Assembly: GCA_937927515.1 (NCBI GenBank)
Contig: CALBDO010000003.1
Span: 67,274-131,273 of the forward strand
Origin: Candidatus Kapaibacterium sp.
GTDB lineage: Bacteria > Bacteroidota > Ignavibacteria > Kapaibacteriales > UBA2268
Length of the DNA stretch: 64,000 nucleotides
Direction of reading: 5' to 3'
The position numbers were made by a program, and so were the translations under genes. The notes under the pieces were generated by a model. It was not told where the DNA came from and made no database searches. It was given only the letters and a program-made list of their open reading frames with translations. Of this stretch, positions 1 to 31,128 are shown piece by piece. Every line of letters starts with the position of its first letter. The first letter of the stretch is position 1.

Positions 1-1620
1 GGCTGTTGTATAGAAACATTTGAATGTAAATTCCCCTTGCTTGCCACAATTGCCAATTGTTCTGTGGCATGGAATGTAGATGGTAAGACAATGTCCGCAA
101 ACATTGTCATTTCGGAGGCGTGGGTCACGCAGTGTACAAAGAATGGAATCTTTTTCATTGCCTCGTCCCACCTTTGCGCACCTGCAACGGAGAAATTAAA
201 ATTGCACCAATAACCAATCGCCATTTTTATTTCATAAGGTTTCTCTTTGAGTATGTTGTTTGCAATATTTGCAGTAACAACACCAGAGCCTAATTTACCA
301 CTTGCCATAGCGGGCATATCGATATCTCCCCGCCCATCAATCTTCTTTTGTGAATTTCCAGTCTTAGCAATATCGTCAAGATAATTATCAACTGCGGGGG
401 TGCTTGCAACTTTATAAGACGGACCGCGTAATGTTCCACCCTCGTTGTCTGCAGAGCCCAAGAGTCCATTAAGTGCATGTATAGCCATAGCTGTATAACT
501 ACCACGTGGAGACATAGCCGGTCCTGGTCCTAACCAATGAATTACCCTTGGAGCAGCTTTACCCATTTCTTTAGCAATTTGTACTATTTTCTCTTTGCTA
601 ATTCCAGTAATTGGCTCAGCCCATTCAGGAGTTTTGTCCTTCAACTCGATGTTCCACCATTTAACAAGACCATAAGTATAATTTTCCTGAAAATCATCTT
701 CGGAAACGATTTGATTAGGTACAAATCGATTTACCCCATCTTTAAAATCACCAACAAATTCTTTGTTCCACAATCCCTCCGTAAGTATCACATGAGCAAA
801 GGCTACTGCCAAAGCCCCGTCTTGACCTGGTATTATCGGTAACCATTCATGGGATTTAGAAGCTGCCGTGGTTAATATTGGGTCAATGGTTACAACCTTT
901 GCTTTCTCGACCATTTTACCCCACTTATTCATCATTCCAGGAACTAAACGATTGGACCGCACAGGGTCTACCCCCCATAGCACTATGTATTTGGAATTCA
1001 TCACATCGTAATCTCGATAACCCCAGTAACCCTCTGTAAAAAATGATCCGGACTTTTCTGCTTCGGCACAAATAGAGCTATGCGAGAAAGAATTTGGTGT
1101 TCCAAGTATTTTCGGCATTGAACTATATACAATACTATTTAGAACAGGTGTATATCTACCACGCAAGAACATGAGCTTGTGTATTTCGCCATTACTACGC
1201 AACTCCATTATTTTGTCTGCAATAATTTCCAACGCTTCGTCCCACGTAATTGGGACAAACTGCGGGTCGACACCTCGACCTTTTAGCGGATTTGTTCGCT
1301 TCAGTGGAACTTTAATCCTATCGGGGTCGTAAGTCATAATTGGAATAAAGTGTCCCCTTGGACAAACATAACCCGGGTTAACTTTGGAATTGTGATTTCC
1401 TCGAACTTTAACCGCTCTTCCATTGATTACAAAGACCTCGATAGGACACCAGGTTGTACAGCCTTGACATGTTGAAGGTATCCATTTACCAACATCTTGC
1501 AAAATCACATCTTTTGTTTTGTTTTGAGAGAACACACGAACAACTGAATTTGCTAAAAGAGCTGTACCAACACCTCCAAGTCCAAGAGCTTTCAAGAAGT
1601 CTCGTCTTTGTATTCTCATA
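1..1620 (-). CDS. Molybdopterin (DMSO-reductase family) oxidoreductase catalytic subunit, PsrA/PhsA/ArrA-like. N-terminal ~540 aa only; the 3' end lies beyond the window start.
   Basis: Hand translation of the minus strand from the ATG at 1620 (RBS-like GGAGAG 3 nt upstream) gives MRIQRRDFLKALGLGGVGTALLA (twin-arginine signal), then CQGCTTWCPIEV...27 aa...C (CX2CX3CX27C, a [4Fe-4S] motif), and an open frame to position 1. It is missing from the ORF track probably because the stop lies outside the window. Confidence 0.8.
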
Positions 1621-1663
1621 TTCTCTCCATAGGTTTTGTGGATGATATTAAAAATTTATTAAT

Positions 1664-1680
1664 ATTCAATTTAAATGCCA
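1664..1680 (-). promoter_or_regulatory. Candidate sigma-54 (-24/-12) promoter for the oxidoreductase gene
   Basis: Minus strand reads TGGCAT-ttaaa-TTGAA, about 40 nt upstream of the ATG at 1620. The GG element and spacing fit the TGGCAC-N5-TTGCW consensus. The -12 GC is GA, so the match is weak. Confidence 0.3.
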
Positions 1681-1767
1681 TAATCAGAAAATTTACATAA
1701 CTTATTCATTTTAAATAAATTACACTAACTATAAATAAATTTAAATCCATTTTAAACAGAGGGGAAA

Positions 1768-1803
1768 GGTACGAATTTTAGTGATTTGGTACGAAATTTC
1801 GTA
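1768..1803. promoter_or_regulatory. Candidate enhancer (UAS) for the sigma-54 activator: two GGTACGAA half-sites 20 bp apart, the second inside the perfect palindrome TACGAAATTTCGTA
   Basis: Seen directly: GGTACGAA at 1768-1775 and 1788-1795; 14-bp perfect palindrome at 1790-1803. It lies about 90-140 bp upstream of the candidate -24/-12 element and directly after the regulator stop codon. It is AT-rich with no T-tract, so a terminator is unlikely. Confidence 0.35.
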
Positions 1804-1804
1804 A

Positions 1805-3154
1805 TTAATCGGTTAAACCGAACTTTTCCATTTTACTTCGAAGTGTATTTAGGGGAATTTTTAAAAGCCTTGCTGCTTGAGTTTTATTATTGTTTGCTAT
1901 CTTTAGAGCTTTTTGAATTAATTGTATTTCTAATTTATCAAGATATTCGTTCAGAGGTATATCTGGGATTTCCTCATACTTCTTTTCAAAGCTATTGTAT
2001 ATTTCATTAGGCAGGGATTTTAAGTCGATTTCATTGTTATTTGAAAGAAGCACAGTCCTTTCAGCTATGTTTTTTATTTCTCTAATGTTTCCTTTCCAAG
2101 AATACTTTTTCAATACCTCAAAGACTTCTGGATTTACATTCTTCATACCTCCGGCAAACATATTGACAAAATGCTGAAAGAGAACTGGCACGTCCTCAAT
2201 TCGCTCTCTGATAGGTTTTAAATTGATAGGAAAGACATTTAGCCGATAGTACAAATCTTCACGAAATAATCCTTTCTCGCACAATTCGAGCAAATTTTTT
2301 TTAGTTGCAGCAATTATTTTTGTATCCAACTTTATGAGCTTATTACTACCTATTCTTTGAATCTCTCCCTCTTGCAAAAATCTTAGTAATTTCACTTGCA
2401 AATCCAATGGTATATCATCTACATCATCGAGAAAAACTGTACCACCGTTTGCTTGCTCTAACTTCCCAATTCTATCTCTGATTGCCCCGGTAAACGAGCC
2501 TTTGATATGTCCAAATAATTCACTTTCGAACATTTCCCGGGGCAGTATGGCACAACTAACCTTGACAAAAGGTTGGTCTTTACGTGGACTATTATAGTGT
2601 ATAATGTTTGCAACTAATTCTTTGCCCGTACCAGTTTCTCCACATATCAACACCGGAGAGTTCGAATTGGCAGCGTAATGCAAAAGTTTTCTAAGTTCAC
2701 GAACAAATTCAGAAACGCCAATATAACTTTCAAATGAATATTTGCTCTGTTGATGTATATTGTAAGAAACAACTCGTGATTTTAGATTATTAAATTCTAT
2801 TAACTTTTCTATATTAATAAGTAATTCTTCTGTTGTAAATGGTTTGACAAGATAATTAAATGCACCTAATTTCATTGCTTGAATTGCAGTGTCAATAGAA
2901 CCATATGCTGTAATAACTAATATTCCCATGTGAGGTTGAATTTTCTTAAGAGTTTGAAGAAGCTCCAATCCATTCATGTCCGGTAAACGTAGGTCAGTTA
3001 TAATTATGTCAATCGGATTGCTGTCTGCATAAACAAGACAATCCTTTGCATTCGAAAAAGTAACGACTTCGTACCCATTATCTTTAAGTTCATCTGATAG
3101 AGTTATACGAATGATTTCCTCGTCTTCGACCAAGCAGATATTAAATTCTTTCAT
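1805..3154 (-). CDS. Sigma-54-dependent response regulator (NtrC/AtoC family: REC + AAA+ + Fis-type HTH)
   Basis: Receiver domain with the phospho-acceptor context (DIIITDLRLPDMNG). Walker A GETGTGKE, GAFTGA-type GSFTGA, ESELFGH. C-terminal HTH. Overlaps the kinase gene by 14 nt. Confidence 0.9.
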   Translation of the reverse strand: MKEFNICLVEDEEIIRITLSDELKDNGYEVVTFSNAKDCLVYADSNPIDIIITDLRLPDMNGLELLQTLKKIQPHMGILVITAYGSIDTAIQAMKLGAFNYLVKPFTTEELLINIEKLIEFNNLKSRVVSYNIHQQSKYSFESYIGVSEFVRELRKLLHYAANSNSPVLICGETGTGKELVANIIHYNSPRKDQPFVKVSCAILPREMFESELFGHIKGSFTGAIRDRIGKLEQANGGTVFLDDVDDIPLDLQVKLLRFLQEGEIQRIGSNKLIKLDTKIIAATKKNLLELCEKGLFREDLYYRLNVFPINLKPIRERIEDVPVLFQHFVNMFAGGMKNVNPEVFEVLKKYSWKGNIREIKNIAERTVLLSNNNEIDLKSLPNEIYNSFEKKYEEIPDIPLNEYLDKLEIQLIQKALKIANNNKTQAARLLKIPLNTLRSKMEKFGLTD

Positions 3155-4682
3155 TTTGAGAAACTCTACTAAATTTAATTTTTACCCAAGTTCCATTGCC
3201 AAAGTCAGAATGAAGCTCTATCTCAGCATTGTGTAGGTTTAAAATGTTTTGAACCACTGATAATCCTAAACCTGTTCCTTTACTACCTTTGGTAGTGTAA
3301 AATGTTTCGAACACTTTGTTAATATCTTCTTGATGTATACCAATACCATTGTCTTCAATTATAACTTCCACCGAGTTTGAGAAATCCGACACCGTGATTC
3401 GAATTTCTTTTTCACTTCTATCTTTGACTTCTGAAAATTTTTGGTCTATTGCTTCGATACTGTTGATTAAAAGATTAACAAAAACCTGTTCCAAATGTTG
3501 AAAGCTTCCAAATATATCATCATTAGAGGCTTTGTAATTTTTTTTTATCTTAATGTTACTTTCACTGAGCCTATGTGATACAAGAAGAAGAGATTTTTCA
3601 ATTATTTCAACTAATTTAACTTTTGTAAAACTTATATCCTGTTTCCTAGTGAAATTCATTAAATTAGTAATCACAAACTGTATTTTCATTGCAGACTCTT
3701 CCATCAAATCAAGGTATTTGAACAGTTGCTCTTGATTATACGGATTTCTTTTTAATCTATAAATCGAATTCAAAATACCAGCTACTGGATTATTAATGTC
3801 GTGAGCCAAACCAGCAGCAAGCACACCAATAGTAGACATTTTTTCTAATTGCATAAGTTGAGTTTGCATTTGTTGCAATTTAATATGCTTACTTATTAAA
3901 CCATCAACCATCCGTTGGAAATTGCTTATCAAATTATCAATTTCGTCCAACACGATAAATTTTTCAAAAAAATGATTTGTCCTTGCAATCTTCTTAAAAT
4001 CTACGGATGTTTCGTCAGGTAGATTACTTAAATCAAAATTTTGTGAGTACTCGTCAAGTCGTTTAATTGGTTTTGAAATATAGTTAGAAAACACAAATGC
4101 TCCAAAAATTCCAACTACAAAGAAAGCCAAAATCATAATTAAAAAAATCCTCATATTCTTTTGAACACCTTTTTCTATGTTTTTTATGTTAAGTCCCACA
4201 AAAAGATAGCCAAGACTACCCTTTAGAATTGGCTTATTTGCTTGGATAACCTCTAACCTTTCGTTGTGGCAAAACGTTGGATATTCCGACATGGACTTGC
4301 AACTATCAGAACACTTGTAATTTTGATTTATTAAATCCTGCATTGTTAGATCGTACGTACTTGCAATAACGACATTATTCATATTCTCCAATATTATAAA
4401 TTTTATGGAGCTATCACTGGACCTTGCTGAACTCAAGATTGTTTGAATTATTGAGGAATCCTTTTCAATTAAGCTGTTAGTCAATTGTTCAGAAATTGTG
4501 TTGGTGATAAAATTTAAGCGATTTAATAATTCACTTTCCAAAGTTTTTTTAAAATTCTCGTTGATTAATGTGTAGTTTATTGTCCCAAATACAATGACGC
4601 TTATAGTTAATGCAATTGCAAACTTCCAGAATAGAGGCAGATAAAATTTTCTTTTATAGAGTACTGGCTTTTTCATAATCAC
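3141..4682 (-). CDS. Sensor histidine kinase with two transmembrane helices and a Cys-containing periplasmic domain
   Basis: H-box LAHDINNPV. HATPase_c motifs DNGIGI and GTGLGLS. Two hydrophobic segments flank a ~160-aa loop containing YKCSDSCKSMSEYPTFCH. Confidence 0.85.
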   Translation of the reverse strand: MIMKKPVLYKRKFYLPLFWKFAIALTISVIVFGTINYTLINENFKKTLESELLNRLNFITNTISEQLTNSLIEKDSSIIQTILSSARSSDSSIKFIILENMNNVVIASTYDLTMQDLINQNYKCSDSCKSMSEYPTFCHNERLEVIQANKPILKGSLGYLFVGLNIKNIEKGVQKNMRIFLIMILAFFVVGIFGAFVFSNYISKPIKRLDEYSQNFDLSNLPDETSVDFKKIARTNHFFEKFIVLDEIDNLISNFQRMVDGLISKHIKLQQMQTQLMQLEKMSTIGVLAAGLAHDINNPVAGILNSIYRLKRNPYNQEQLFKYLDLMEESAMKIQFVITNLMNFTRKQDISFTKVKLVEIIEKSLLLVSHRLSESNIKIKKNYKASNDDIFGSFQHLEQVFVNLLINSIEAIDQKFSEVKDRSEKEIRITVSDFSNSVEVIIEDNGIGIHQEDINKVFETFYTTKGSKGTGLGLSVVQNILNLHNAEIELHSDFGNGTWVKIKFSRVSQNERI

Positions 4683-5341
4683 TTGCCAACTATAACCAAA
4701 TATATTAATTTAAACTTTGCTGAGAAATTTCTTTTGCTTTTTTACATTGCATAGTTTTTAGTTGATACCTTCATCTGTAATTGATAGTATTAAAAAATTT
4801 GGTAAAGGTTCAATTTCATCTACATTTTAAGCAATTTCAGAAATTTCTAACCGACATACAAAGAAATCAACTTTCCGACTAATCGAACATAGCCTTAACC
4901 TTTTGTATATTTTCATGGTGTTTATATTATTTAATCCAAACTTGAAACAATTTTTTGCATTCCGAAAATTAAAGGCTGAACCACTATTTGGGTAATTATT
5001 GTACGCTCTATCCTTAATTCATGTAAAATCAAACTCGGGCTCTTCCTTAGTTCAAAAACATATCTCTAAGCAAATAAATTAAAACAAAAAAACACGGAAT
5101 TAAAAGTTTGGAAAGCAATTTTATTGCTCCAATGAATGTGAAACCAAAATCCTTCGAACTGTATTTCACCTGTTATTTTTAAGTATTTTAAATATCTAAT
5201 TGCGACTTTTTTGCAAAAGAACTTTTTGGTATTAAATTGAAAATTACTAATGGGTAAAATTTTATGGAAGTCCACAGCCTAAATATATTTTTTAAAACAC
5301 CCGTTCGAACATGTATTCACAAGAAGATTATTGAAAATGGC

Positions 5342-5566
5342 TTAACCACATCCATTAGGACCACAGCTGGGACCACAAACTACAGGTGAAGTAGAGCGCT
5401 TATTAGTCTGGCCACTCAAAATAGCAAAATTCCCTAAAACCTGAATTACCTCTTCAGAGCCACAGTATGGGCAGTCGGGGTTTTTACCCTTTTCCTTTTC
5501 AGATAGTGACATTGTAATTTCAAATTTTTGGACACATTTTTTACAAATATATTCATATGTAGGCAT
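5342..5566 (-). CDS. FmdB-family zinc-ribbon protein (putative regulatory)
   Basis: MPTYEYICKKC...CPYCGS pattern typical of FmdB zinc ribbons; 74 aa. Confidence 0.65.
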   Translation of the reverse strand: MPTYEYICKKCVQKFEITMSLSEKEKGKNPDCPYCGSEEVIQVLGNFAILSGQTNKRSTSPVVCGPSCGPNGCG

Positions 5567-5722
5567 ATAAAACCCTCCTAATTATGACGACCACAATCAA
5601 GTTCTTTCATTTACATCAAATTAAATTACTTTTTGTATCTATAAACAAAAAGATAAAATTAAATTATATTTTAATTCATTTTCATTTTCACTCAAAATTA
5701 AAGAAATTTTCATTTGTATTAC

Positions 5723-6085
5723 TTAATTATTCAAGTCATTAATTGGTAAAGCATTTAAGGATTCCAACAAGTTGTCTTCCGATGTGGGCATGCCAACAGC
5801 AACAATTTTTTCATCTACAGATATAATTGGCAAGCACCCCCAGCCAAGTGCTCTAACAAGTGAAACAACGTCACGATTATTTTTTTGTACTTCCTTGTCT
5901 AGCAAATTCAACACCTCGATGTCAACATTATAACGCTTTTTTATTGTGTTAGTAAGCCAGTTTACTTCATCATCGCTTAATCCAATGGGACCACAACAAG
6001 ATGATTGAGGTCCACATGGAAACTGCTGAGGTATCATAAAAATTTTTACTACAGGATTGTTTTTTCCAACCTCTTCCATTTTCAT
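5723..6085 (-). CDS. ArsD-like small thioredoxin-fold protein (arsenical metallochaperone/repressor family)
   Basis: N-terminal Cys cluster PCGPQSSCCGPIG. By recall it is collinear with ArsD (VFDPAMCCSTGVCG...VQIERFNL...GLPLLLLDGETV versus ...DIEVLNL...CLPIISVDEKIV). Confidence 0.5.
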   Translation of the reverse strand: MKMEEVGKNNPVVKIFMIPQQFPCGPQSSCCGPIGLSDDEVNWLTNTIKKRYNVDIEVLNLLDKEVQKNNRDVVSLVRALGWGCLPIISVDEKIVAVGMPTSEDNLLESLNALPINDLNN

Positions 6086-6099
6086 AACTTCCCTCCTAA

Positions 6100-7407
6100 T
6101 TAAAATAAATTAAAAATATATCCAGCAATTACACAACCAATAAAACTCACTCCAACATATAACCATAAAACTTTTGGCTTGAAAACACCAGACAGCATTA
6201 TTATTGAAGGTAACGATAAACCAGGACCACCAAGTAAGTAACTCAAAGTTGCACCACCTCCCATCCCTTTATGTATTAATGCAAGTGCAGTTGGAACCTC
6301 CACATATGTACACACATACGCTAATACAGCAATAAAAGAAGCAATCAAAACCGAATCCAAACTCTTACCACCAACAAAATTTATAATCAAGTTTGTTGGA
6401 ATTAAAACTTTTATTGCACCTGCAATTAAAACTGCTAAAACAAGATAATAATTTAACTGCAAGAAAAAATCCCATGCAGTAGTGATTAAATTTCTTATCT
6501 TCTGTCTAAAAGGTACCTCCGTATCGCCTGTTGGTAAAACAAAACAGGCTCCAGTTACATCCATTGTAACATTAGTTGTTTGTGGAATATACCATTTACC
6601 TTCCTTATTCCTATCAAGTACTCCTGCTTCGCCTAGAAGGTATAATTTATCTTCTTCATTAGGAGCAAGCTCGTTAGTAGTGAGTCCTTGAGGATTCGCA
6701 ACAAGTTTTTTCCCCACTTCGAAAGCAAATAGTTGGAGTTCTTTTGGAAGAGAAGGTTTTACATTAACTTTAATTAATCTTCGCAAGAACCTCTCCTTTT
6801 TTTGCCAATAGGATGTAACCTGACCAACCAAAAGAGCAATTAGAAAAGTGCCGAGAATCCTACCAATTGCTAATTTCCAACCAAGAACAGAAGCAGTCAT
6901 AAATACAGCTGGGATATTCAACATTGGTGCAGCAATAAGAAATGCCATTGTTGCTCCTAATGGAATACCCGCTTGAACCATGCCAGCAAGTACTGGAACA
7001 ATACCACAGGAACAAATTGGGATTATTGCCCCCGAAATAGCAGCGACAAAATTAGCACCAATACCGCCGTAGCCCATTTTCTTCTTAACCTTTTCCCAAG
7101 GAACAAATACTACCAATGCCGATGCTAATAACATCCCTACAATCCAGTACTGAAATAATTCAACAAGTACTGCTGAACCTTTGATGTAGATGAACCATAA
7201 AGTTTCGAATATATTCAACGAAGGGGGTGTAGCTATTTCTTTTAGTCTAACCTCCTCTCCAGTTATCCCTTTTTCCTGAAGAAGGCCGTATTCGTAGAGC
7301 GAAGTGAACGATAAATCATTATAATAGACGTAAAATAATGCACTGGCATAGAGAATAAAAATTGCTAAAAGGTAATATAGCTCTTTTTTTGTAGGTTTCC
7401 TAAACAT
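6100..7407 (-). CDS. COG0701-type permease (two-repeat CSCG permease often found in ars operons)
   Basis: Polytopic membrane protein with CSCGIVPVLAGMVQAGIPLGATMAFLIAAPMLN and a duplicated half. Confidence 0.7.
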   Translation of the reverse strand: MFRKPTKKELYYLLAIFILYASALFYVYYNDLSFTSLYEYGLLQEKGITGEEVRLKEIATPPSLNIFETLWFIYIKGSAVLVELFQYWIVGMLLASALVVFVPWEKVKKKMGYGGIGANFVAAISGAIIPICSCGIVPVLAGMVQAGIPLGATMAFLIAAPMLNIPAVFMTASVLGWKLAIGRILGTFLIALLVGQVTSYWQKKERFLRRLIKVNVKPSLPKELQLFAFEVGKKLVANPQGLTTNELAPNEEDKLYLLGEAGVLDRNKEGKWYIPQTTNVTMDVTGACFVLPTGDTEVPFRQKIRNLITTAWDFFLQLNYYLVLAVLIAGAIKVLIPTNLIINFVGGKSLDSVLIASFIAVLAYVCTYVEVPTALALIHKGMGGGATLSYLLGGPGLSLPSIIMLSGVFKPKVLWLYVGVSFIGCVIAGYIFNLF

Positions 7408-8177
7408 TAATTACCCCTCTGATACTTGATAAAATATTTAAACGGTTAAAAATAATGAACATTTTCTTAAAATTTTGCTAATTTTTTTGGACCTAAATTT
7501 GTTCAATTATTATATGAATAAGCAGTTCTTATAATACAACTATTTAGCACCGTTTCAAACAAGCTAAAAAGGAAATTCCATCAATAAGTAAAATAGTCAT
7601 TTTGATAAAGTTTAAAAAAGTTTAATGCATCCATGTGTAATGGAACGATTAATTATTCTTATCTGGATGATGAAAGATAATTGCTTTGTATATTTCTGAG
7701 TGCATTTTAAAAAATCTCGCTTTCTCACTTGACAAAAAATAAATCGTGCTTCTTACCAATTCTTTGGAGTTGTCGGGAATGACAAAGGTATAATTAATCC
7801 TACACCATCTTTGTCCAAAAAGGTTATTATTTCGTTCTGTAAGTTATTCCCAAAGGATATACATACAATTAAAATTTGAATAATTACACGACTTGTTTCA
7901 TATTAAAACCTTTACTTTCCAGTTTCTGGAAATTCTGTTCTGTACTTCAAGAAGAAACGAGATAATTTTTACAATTACTTAAATTTAACTTTTCATCATA
8001 CCTATTAAAAGCATAGATAAAATTACAGTAAAACTTTAAAAATGAATTTAAAATTTGGGTCAGATTTTGATTAAAAGGTATTCTTTATATGTTGAATTTT
8101 AGGGAATTAAATTTAATTCCTGTAACTATTGCCAAATAATAGAATATTACAAGCAATTATTGTAATGTTGTAAAAAA

Positions 8178-9417: not shown

Positions 9418-10299
9418 TTATAATATCCTTCTTACTTTGTATCCCTTTCTCTTTAATAAGCTTACAATACCATTTTCTCCAAGTAAATGGATTGCTCCTA
9501 CGATAACAAAGTATGTTTCACAAGAGGAAAGATAGTCAGTTATTTTAGATACCATTTTAAGATTTCTCTGTTCATTTAAAATAAAATTGAACTCTTTCTG
9601 AACTTTATCCTCTAAATCAGTATATAATTCGCTTATGAGAAGTGTTTCATCTCCTTTGAGCCAGGCATTATAAGTTTTATCAAAACTGCTGGTATCTTGC
9701 TTGGCTTTTATAAGAAAATATTCAAAGAAAAACTCTGGAGACAATTCATATAAACTTTTAAATATGTTGAGTTGCTCATTGAAGGATTCCAATTCAAGAA
9801 TCCGTTTGGTGGAATCAATCCTTTTAAGGAAATGAAATTCAATGCCTTCAACAAAATAGTGTCCTGAGTATATTAAATCTAGATTAATTAAAAAAAGTAT
9901 GGCAAACCAAGGCTGCATTTGATTATAAAAAAACTTTGGAATAGAGTGCATTTTGAAGAGACTATCAACTATTCTAAAGTATTTCTTTGGCATAACTTTC
10001 TCCAAAGTATTCCCATCCTTAAAAGTCCCATATTCAAAAATTTTAAATGGGTCAAGATTTTTTAAATTGATTTCAAAAACAATATTTCTACATGTATGAA
10101 ATGTACTATTAACAATTGGGTCGAGTGGATAGGCAGATGATTTTGCAATGTGAATTGAGCCAAATAAATACACCTTTGAACTATCGGTCTCTATCAAATA
10201 AAAAAAGCCTTTCGCAAAAAGCGCATAGTGAAAATTTAAGATTGATACAATTATTACAAGATAAAACAGTTTTTGTTTCATAAAGTTTGCCTTGAACAT
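9418..10299 (-). CDS. TraB/GumN family protein
   Basis: KVYLFGSIHIAKSSAYPLDP...VFEINL signature of TraB/GumN. Confidence 0.6.
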   Translation of the reverse strand: MFKANFMKQKLFYLVIIVSILNFHYALFAKGFFYLIETDSSKVYLFGSIHIAKSSAYPLDPIVNSTFHTCRNIVFEINLKNLDPFKIFEYGTFKDGNTLEKVMPKKYFRIVDSLFKMHSIPKFFYNQMQPWFAILFLINLDLIYSGHYFVEGIEFHFLKRIDSTKRILELESFNEQLNIFKSLYELSPEFFFEYFLIKAKQDTSSFDKTYNAWLKGDETLLISELYTDLEDKVQKEFNFILNEQRNLKMVSKITDYLSSCETYFVIVGAIHLLGENGIVSLLKRKGYKVRRIL

Positions 10300-30992: not shown

Positions 30993-31128
30993 CAGCGAGC
31001 AAATTTTAAAAGTACAAATTTAAGAATTCCAACTGCATTTAGAAAGTTCATATAAGTACAAACTTTGGTGTAATATATGCTATGAAATTTCGTCAAATAA
31101 CTCGACAAAAAAACAAATTGGAGGAGAT

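Follow-up and report, generated by a model that had tools for sequence, protein, structure and literature searches.

Here we describe the locus of arrA, a gene assigned to the catalytic subunit of respiratory arsenate reductase, in a 64,000-nucleotide stretch of a Candidatus Kapaibacterium sp. assembly (GenBank GCA_937927515.1, contig CALBDO010000003.1, positions 67,274 to 131,273; hereafter the window, whose own numbering is used throughout), and in particular the 185-bp spacer that separates arrA from a two-component system. On the minus strand, the genes run in the order membrane histidine kinase, NtrC/AtoC-type regulator, spacer (1620–1804) and arrA. A first-pass annotation of this DNA had read the same order (a kinase, an NtrC-type sigma-54 activator, a 185-bp spacer and a molybdoenzyme exported by the twin-arginine translocation (TAT) system), and all of these elements are present. 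The kinase and regulator genes overlap by 14 nt, indicating translational coupling. Orthologous loci were gathered by using the regulator protein as query against genome and metagenome collections. Among public sequences, the closest relatives are metagenome-assembled genomes (MAGs) of Candidatus Kapaibacteria, placed by NCBI under Bacteroidota. Five independent loci in which the regulator gene is followed by arrA (L001, L002, L004, L081 and L082; L083 duplicates L004) form, together with the window, the six-locus set used for comparison.

The regulator gene (1805–3154, minus strand; stop codon TAA at 1807–1805) encodes a 449-residue response regulator belonging to the sigma-54 enhancer-binding class (bacterial enhancer-binding protein, bEBP), with Pfam matches to Response_reg (101.8 bits), Sigma54_activat (220.6 bits), AAA_lid_14 and HTH_8 (39 bits). 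It has the three parts that define an NtrC/AtoC-type bEBP: a receiver domain with phospho-acceptor D54, an AAA+ sigma-54 interaction domain and a C-terminal Fis-type helix-turn-helix. Its Walker A motif GETGTGKE (2641–2618), GSFTGA loop (2500–2483; GAFTGA in L002, L004 and L082), Walker B motif FLDDVDD (2434–2414) and HTH_8 recognition helix PLNTLRSK (1855–1832) all lie on the minus strand, and D11, D54, T82, K104, Walker A and the arginine fingers are invariant in the regulator alignment. No other bEBP gene is found in the window (a single GAFTGA-type protein in 64 kb).

The sensor histidine kinase (3141–4682, minus strand; likely start ATG 4676) carries the Pfam domains HisKA and HATPase_c, and hydropathy places its transmembrane helices at residues ~17–39 and ~178–200. 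Its periplasmic domain is single-Cache/PDC-like in an alignment-based AlphaFold2 model of residues 1–210 (predicted local distance difference test score (pLDDT) 92.5), which was used in place of a single-sequence model (pLDDT 37). Foldseek matched this periplasmic model to the extracellular domains of WalK/YycG, CitA and DctB. The kinases of orthologous loci are 44–84% identical.

The target gene runs off the start of the window, which holds its 5′ 539 codons (1–1619, minus strand; ATG 1619–1617). The encoded fragment scores 663 bits on the NCBIfam ArrA model against 246 for the next family, PhsA, and full-length orthologs, matched over their whole length, score 1052–1070 bits, roughly fourfold the score of the next family; neither the fragment nor the full-length orthologs reach the equivalog cut-off of NF041714 (1600 bits). 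The fragment has a TAT signal RRDFLK (1607–1590, minus strand), an N-terminal Fe4S4 motif CQGCTTWC and the sequences RGRY (1163–1152, minus strand; LRGRY at residues 152–156) and HSSICAE (1082–1062, minus strand). ArrA proteins are distinguished by (R/K)GRY and ArxA proteins by XGRGWG (PMC6549141), and the window enzyme has RGRY, not the ArxA motif. On these sequence grounds the molybdoenzyme is ArrA; the earlier label of molybdopterin oxidoreductase was right as to a TAT-exported molybdoenzyme, and the NCBIfam scores and the RGRY motif make it more precise. The ArrA proteins of the five orthologous loci are 82–96% identical. In L002, arrA is accompanied by an arrB gene (226 bits on the NCBIfam ArrB model, below the 450-bit cut-off) with a TorD-like chaperone gene after it, and comparable 4Fe-4S subunit genes were identified by Pfam in L004 and L082. 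ArrAB has already been reported in the complete Kapabacteria genome Ch6 (Kadnikov 2020, PMC7509429).

Paired dyads and a -24/-12 element in the spacer

The spacer opens, 1 nt after the regulator stop codon, with the perfect palindrome TACGAAATTTCGTA (1790–1803; dyad 1), a 14-bp feature that the first-pass annotation had also placed there. A second, degenerate dyad (CACTAAAATTCGTA on the minus strand, 12/14; 1770–1783; dyad 2) has its centre 20 bp from that of dyad 1. The two copies form a 19-nt direct repeat (84%, 20-bp spacing), and the octamer GGTACGAA lies on the plus strand at 1768–1775 and 1788–1795, exactly 20 bp apart. These octamers had been described earlier as two half-sites; the copies and their spacing stand, but the putative upstream activating sequence (UAS) consists of two full dyads. 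The window contains three copies of GGTACGAA against 0.94 expected, the third (3068–3075) being unpaired and within the regulator gene. A weight-matrix scan of the 64 kb found a single dyad pair, and the only further site was an unpaired near-match at 31081–31094 (13.7 bits), judged to be chance.

Downstream of the dyads, in the direction of arrA, lies a sigma-54-type -24/-12 element, TGGCAT-TTAAA-TTGAA (1665–1680, minus strand), with the GG of -24 at 1679–1678 and the GA of the -12 region at 1667–1666. TGGCAY-N5-TTGMW matches once in 64 kb against 0.33 expected, and the looser TGGCAY-N5-TTGN is likewise single in the window. Measured to the GG, the centres of dyads 1 and 2 are 118 and 98 bp upstream, and 45 nt separate the end of -12 from the ATG; these measurements replace the approximate 110 bp and 40 nt given earlier. 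Both the adjacent gene for a cognate bEBP and the dyad distances agree with what is expected of a sigma-54 promoter, for which the UAS lies ~80–150 bp upstream. From the standard distance between -24/-12 and +1, transcription is predicted to start at ~1654 (1652–1656, minus strand), a refinement of the earlier estimate near 1650, leaving a 5′ untranslated region of ~35 nt. A Shine–Dalgarno sequence, GGAG (1625–1628, minus strand), stands 5 nt upstream of the ATG.

Between the dyads and the promoter, 27 nt upstream of TGGCA, is a tentative bending element resembling a site for integration host factor (IHF), AATGAATAAGTTA (1698–1710, minus strand; compare WATCAA-N4-TTR). It recurs at the same offset in L001 and in L092, a locus of the wider family described below, and is weakly kept in L002, L004, L081 and L082. 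Of 12 wider-family promoters, 11 have a CAA-N4-TTA element ~27 nt upstream of TGGCA. A role in IHF-like bending is tentatively proposed from this recurrence.

Two further repeats were noted in the spacer. A 14-nt direct repeat (TATTCAATTTAAAT / TATTCATTTTAAAT, 1663–1676 and 1703–1716, 40-bp spacing) has one copy over the -12 region and the other over the IHF-like element, and AT-rich DNA may explain it. An inverted repeat (ATATTAAAAA / TTATTAATAT, 1644–1665) spans the predicted start and could be an operator or chance. In L001, GATAT-N7-ATATC was found by eye near the same place (7484–7510), and it was not seen in the more distant orthologs.

Within the window alone these motifs are only mildly unusual; they are significant because they are conserved in orthologous loci. 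The five regulators are 91% (L001), 70% (L002), 70% (L081), 68% (L082) and 61% (L004) identical to that of the window. In each of the five loci two 14-bp dyads (consensus tACGAwwwwTCGTa) open the spacer, TGGCAY-N5-TTG is present, and dyad 2 is well formed (CACGAAAAATCGTA, TACGATAATTCGTA, TACAAAATTTCGTA, TACGAAATTTCGTA and GACGAAAAATCGTA). The invariant blocks of the six-locus alignment are ACGA..TCGT (twice), TGGCA..TTG, GGAG, the ATG and some isolated columns, among them a TTA triplet; elsewhere the spacer has diverged, with a mean column identity of 65% over the alignment. The geometry is equally constrained. Across the six loci the dyads are spaced by 20–22 bp, the centres of dyads 1 and 2 lie 116–118 and 95–98 bp from the -24 GG, the -13 G lies 41–48 nt from the ATG, and the sigma-54 promoter frame GG-N10-G is found in every case. 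The first-pass annotation had named a lack of conservation of the repeats in orthologous loci as grounds for abandoning its reading; dyads, promoter and spacing are kept in all five.

In 1.40 Mb of collected sequence, ACGA-W4-TCGT occurs 16 times against ~1 expected by our own calculation, and 11 of the 16 matches are in arrA spacers. A second dyad pair was observed in L007 (9684–9716; AACGAAATATCGTT and AACGATATTTCGTG, 19 bp apart), with TGGCATACTAGTTGC at 9826, ~120 bp further downstream and ~2.3 kb beyond the regulator gene. This pair and its downstream element suggest a second target promoter in that locus.

Probable control of arrA by the adjacent two-component system

Taken together, the domains of the regulator, the conservation of the sites and their fixed geometry make it probable that the 185-bp spacer is a complete sigma-54 enhancer–promoter module by which the neighbouring two-component system turns on arrA. 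This agrees with the earlier reading of arrA as controlled by a bEBP acting from a UAS on its promoter. In orthologs, the module would also drive arrB and the TorD-like chaperone gene. We infer DNA binding, dependence on sigma-54, the start site and the signal from sequence. In the mechanism that we propose, the Cache/PDC-like domain of the membrane kinase would sense a signal in the periplasm, an arsenic oxyanion being the most plausible one, and the kinase would phosphorylate D54 of the regulator. Regulator dimers would then fill the dyads at 1790–1803 and 1770–1783 and assemble an AAA+ ring, and the AT-rich spacer (~100 bp) would bend or loop, possibly aided by an IHF/HU-like protein at ~1698–1710. 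ATP hydrolysis and the GSFTGA loop would remodel the closed sigma-54 holoenzyme complex at 1680–1665, so that transcription would begin near 1654, 35 nt before the ATG.

Several observations weigh against such a module. An AioX/ArrX-type binding protein was not found in the window by tblastn with three X proteins. Neither RpoN in the window nor an rpoN gene in the fetched loci was found, these sequences covering part of each genome; the presence of rpoN is expected because all features for sigma-54 interaction are retained by the six orthologous bEBPs, and because Bacteroidota have documented sigma-54 regulons (PMC12316311). In its Walker B motif the regulator has DD rather than DE, though this is conserved across the clade. 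No minus-strand terminator was called in the interval from the regulator gene to arrA, and read-through may therefore supply basal expression of arrA. The two remaining points, an atypical -12 and an overlapping sigma-70-like sequence, concern the promoter itself.

At -12, the C of the GC dinucleotide is missing in all six loci, being replaced by A in the window and by A, A, G, A and T in the orthologs. We tallied this position in the -24/-12 motifs found at most 350 nt downstream of related regulator genes. In the Fibrobacterota–Chlorobiota–Bacteroidota (FCB) lineages (here Bacteroidota, Ignavibacteria and Kryptonia), 14 of 20 loci have the motif, with the bases A7 T4 G2 C1, whereas related promoters of other phyla have C13 T2. 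Because the C is missing in the six loci and in 13 of the 14 related FCB promoters, the -12 is not eroded: as judged from this comparison, it is a conserved, lineage-typical variant rather than a product of decay, and it may reflect a lineage-specific promoter consensus. The -24/-12 element had been called weak; the element stands at 1680–1665, and its apparent weakness is this variant. The FCB promoters of this regulator family, which rarely have C at -12, include those of L008, L009, L010, L014, L018, L025, L031, L035, L046, L048 and others, 60–350 nt past the regulator gene. Across the fetched loci, 92 of 97 -24/-12-like motifs have the same orientation as the regulator gene, a bias that chance matches would not show. 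A -12 of this kind (TTG followed by A, T or G) would escape consensus-based promoter finders.

The sigma-70-like sequence, TTGAAT-16-TATCAT (1669–1642), overlaps the -12 and raises the alternative that arrA is transcribed from a housekeeping promoter, in which case TGGCA would be incidental and the dyads would be an operator for repression or autoregulation. L001 has a better match at the same place (TTGACA-16-TATCAT), and a scan of 1400–2100 gave eight sigma-70-like matches, the one at 1669–1642 among them, against 2.8 expected. However, AT-rich DNA readily gives such matches, and by our own reading the -10-like hexamer is not kept in L002 and L004 and only loosely in L081 and L082. A housekeeping promoter also cannot explain why TGGCAY is invariant 5 nt upstream of TTG in the six loci and recurs past dozens of related bEBP genes. 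We consider this alternative improbable. A Bacteroidetes-type TAnnTTTG motif was not seen consistently across the six spacers.

The adjacent regulator might instead bind the dyads chiefly to control its own gene or to block read-through, with some other activator driving arrA. The position of the dyads against the 3′ end of the regulator's own gene, with no terminator before arrA, would suit such a role. The regulator is, however, of the obligate sigma-54 activator type, the window encodes no other bEBP, and the only sigma-54-like promoter sits ~100 bp downstream of the dyads at a distance that is fixed in six loci. There is little probability, in our judgement, that the dyads serve these purposes in place of arrA activation.

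Lying 1 nt past the stop codon and able to form a hairpin, the palindrome could also be taken for a terminator or RNA hairpin that ends the kinase–regulator operon. This is very improbable: it has no U tract and, with no minus-strand terminator call, does not qualify as an intrinsic terminator; the 71-nt region folds at -9.8 kcal/mol (z = -1.6), and 15 of 200 shuffled sequences fold as well. The palindrome is, moreover, duplicated at a spacing of two helical turns, and the outer cores are invariant in the orthologs, whereas the central four bases vary between A and T and do not keep self-complementarity (as in ACGAAAAATCGT). Invariant cores, duplication and a centre that does not compensate are the pattern of a protein-binding site. 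The spacer was also checked for a known RNA element, a molybdenum cofactor (Moco) riboswitch for instance, and this reading was rejected because no Rfam family matched at E ≤ 1. A last alternative is chance similarity in AT-rich intergenic DNA. The weak window-only statistics would speak for it (8 of 100 shuffles reach three GGTACGAA, and 25 of 100 reach one TGGCAY-N5-TTGMW), but it is refuted for practical purposes: five further loci, with regulator identities as low as 61%, conserve the sequence, its copy number and its spacing.

Relation to known arsenic and sigma-54 systems

The sigma-54 enhancer–promoter module proposed for the arrA spacer has its nearest functional parallels in the arsenic three-component systems. 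As here, AioXSR of Rhizobium sp. NT-26, Agrobacterium tumefaciens GW4 and Herminiimonas arsenicoxydans places a kinase and an AtoC/NtrC-type bEBP beside an arsenic molybdoenzyme, and AioR binds a 16-bp palindrome upstream of the RpoN promoter of aioBA (PMC5335332, PMC5908839). The AioR site known from footprinting, GTTCGGATTTCCGAAC, shares its CG-N6-CG dyad layout with (G)TACGAAATTTCGTA(C) of the window. The same layout is found in the Bosea aio control locus, in which GTTCGGAAATCTGAAC lies ~74 bp upstream of CGGCACG-N4-CTGCA. The window differs from AioXSR in its target (the reductase ArrA, not an oxidase), in having two dyads rather than one and in its -12 without C.

In ArxXSR, known from Alkalilimnicola ehrlichii and Sulfuricella denitrificans pSCD, the target belongs to the enzyme family most closely related to ArrA. 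ArxR belongs to the AtoC-type bEBPs, and arx has a reported putative RpoN promoter and ArxR site (PMC5908839). An arxXSR locus was also seen in L161. The arxXSR genes diverge from their target, whereas in the window the regulator gene and arrA are arranged tail to head.

To assess orthology to these systems, we compared the proteins pairwise with those of the aio locus of Bosea and the arx locus of Sulfuricella and with the E. coli paralogs. The window regulator is 32% identical to AioR (247 bits) and 36% to ArxR (279 bits), against 35–38% (304–323 bits) for AtoC, NtrC and ZraR of E. coli. The sensor domain of the window kinase is unrelated to those of AioS and ArxS, and ArxS matches this kinase only in the kinase core. 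Orthology to AioR/ArxR and AioS/ArxS is rejected on this comparison, the regulator being no closer to AioR or ArxR than to the E. coli paralogs and the kinase matching only in its core. Among the features of the arsenic three-component family (AioXSR/ArxXSR/ArrXSR), the window shares the target, a palindromic UAS and a predicted RpoN promoter; the X protein and orthology to the family were not found there. The same tblastn search with three X proteins in the available parts of L001, L002, L004 and L082 found none, and only an inverted fragment was detected in L003.

ArrXSR of Chrysiogenes arsenatis and Firmicutes resembles the window in having a signal system beside arrA, with presumed induction by arsenate. 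ArrX binds arsenate, and ArrR of Chrysiogenes is CitB/FixJ-like and without an AAA+ domain; no RpoN promoter was found there, nor any promoter upstream of arrAB (PMC5908839). Unlike Chrysiogenes ArrR, the window regulator is of the sigma-54 activator type. A sigma-54-type arr regulator is not unprecedented, because epsilonproteobacterial ArrR proteins are of the AtoC type (PMC5908839).

The layout of the window also follows that of the E. coli systems, although the recognition sequence and signals differ and the regulators are 35–38% identical: in NtrBC, AtoSC and ZraSR, a phosphorylated bEBP acts from tandem dyads at least ~100 bp upstream by DNA looping, often with IHF, an established mechanism that we assume for arrA as well. 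The evidence supports a bEBP/sigma-54-controlled operon for arsenic bioenergetics that is conventional in design, as a newly defined switch in an uncultured Bacteroidota lineage. Our search of the literature for sigma-54 control of arr found no paper defining such a promoter or its cis-elements. To our knowledge, the switching of arr genes is known in detail only for Shewanella (ArsR, cAMP-CRP). The locus provides a testable cis-regulatory model for arr, comprising a site consensus, a geometry, a promoter and a predicted start, and the dyad motif could be used for regulon prediction, for finding arsenic-responsive promoters in metagenomes and in biosensors.

The wider regulator family, the sensor domain and neighbouring genes

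The nearest uncharacterised relatives of the window regulator belong to a wider family from Aminicenantes-type and other MAGs, whose regulators are 43–47% identical to it. They form part of an uncharacterised clade with a PhnD-like binding protein, kinase and bEBP (L006, L013, L015, L023, L086, L089, L092, L093 and others). The kinases of this family are 28–33% identical to the window kinase over the full length, including the sensor domain, and regulators of both groups share the Walker B sequence FLDDVDDIPL and the recognition helix (L/S)(N/T)TLR(S/T)K. This Walker B, which replaces the usual FLDE(I/L)G of bEBPs, is common to the regulators of Kapaibacteria, L006, L013 and L092, and is not found in AioR, ArxR, AtoC, ZraR or NtrC.

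The spacers of the wider family resemble that of the window, with tandem CG-N6-CG dyads of the form nnCGA-W4-TCGnn or ACGGA..TCCG, 20–21 bp apart, followed by a -24/-12 element. The Aminicenantes-type cassette consists of two AGCGAAAwTTCGCT-type dyads exactly 20 bp apart, then CAA-N4-TTA, then TGGCAY-N5-TTGC, and it starts 1–3 nt past the bEBP stop codon in L013, L015, L086, L089, L092, L093 and others. The distance from dyad 1 to the GG is 104–107 bp at most Aminicenantes-type loci and greater at a few. Differences from the window are found in the dyad flanks (AGCGA..TCGCT or ACGGA..TCCGT), in the -12, which is the canonical TTGC outside FCB lineages, and in a PF12974 (PhnD-like) binding-protein gene directly upstream of the kinase gene. 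Most targets of the wider family are multihaem cytochrome or other molybdoenzyme operons; the cassette stands ahead of operons that encode secreted proteins, multihaem cytochromes and those molybdoenzymes, which are only 28–30% identical to ArrA. It thereby marks a wide, uncharacterised family of binding protein, kinase and bEBP that stands before respiratory operons in several phyla. In L006, a Bacteroidota MAG, the gene order is binding protein, kinase, regulator and ArrA, and the dyads (ACGGATTTCC(A/G)C, 20 bp apart) lie 101 and 81 bp from GGCATG-N4-TTGCA.

The periplasmic Cache/PDC-like domain of the window kinase contains a cysteine triad, C-x3-C-x9-C (NYKCSDSCKSMSEYPTFCHN, window 4266–4313; Y[K/Q]CxDSC...CHN), at C124, C128 and C138 counted from GTG 4682 (codons 4311–4313, 4299–4301 and 4269–4271). 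The triad falls in a lower-confidence loop of the model, between a helix (residues 110–119) and a strand (134–138). Members of the sensor-domain family were collected by an exhaustive HMMER search, a word-indexed homolog search having given one match only. All Kapaibacterial kinases examined (those of the window, L001, L002, L003, L004, L082 and P0001–P0003) keep the triad, and none of ~60 other family members has it, their aligned loop being nearly cysteine-free; the wider-family kinases described above likewise have no such triad. As(III) classically takes three thiols as its ligands, and the triad may serve to bind As(III) or as a redox site.

A binding-protein gene was not found beside the Kapaibacterial kinases with intact flanks. 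It is conceivable, if doubtful on balance, that the kinase of this clade has turned into a direct arsenic sensor and no longer needs an AioX/ArrX-type binding protein; arsenite or arsenate would then induce arrA through a new kind of periplasmic metalloid-sensing kinase domain. In L003, a low-quality contig, positions 5–319 (minus strand), set against 237–1481, hold an inverted PhnD-like fragment (36% over 105 residues) at the expected N terminus of the kinase. Such genomes may carry an X-type gene elsewhere, or the contig may be chimeric.

Other arsenic genes lie close by. The window encodes an ACR3 arsenite exporter (417 bits, above the cut-off), which together with an ArsP-type permease is located a few kb from arrA. 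In L001, a 91%-identical locus, ACR3 stands immediately before the kinase, and relative to it the window carries ~3.5 kb of additional DNA (4683–8177). This segment contains the ArsP-type permease (6100–7407), a 120-residue protein with a faint ArsD-like match (5723–6085), a Zn-ribbon protein (5342–5566) and a 69-codon open reading frame (5066–5275).

Beyond the window, a C-terminal sorting domain of the type IX secretion system (Por_Secre_tail, 31–36 bits against a cut-off of 27) was observed on arsenate reductase subunits: on ArrB in L002 (10066–11154), L004 (10065–11156) and L082 (9077–10171), arrB itself being outside the window, and on ArrA in L006 (7643–10483). The presence of this domain suggests that the TAT-exported arsenate reductase may be moved on to the cell surface.

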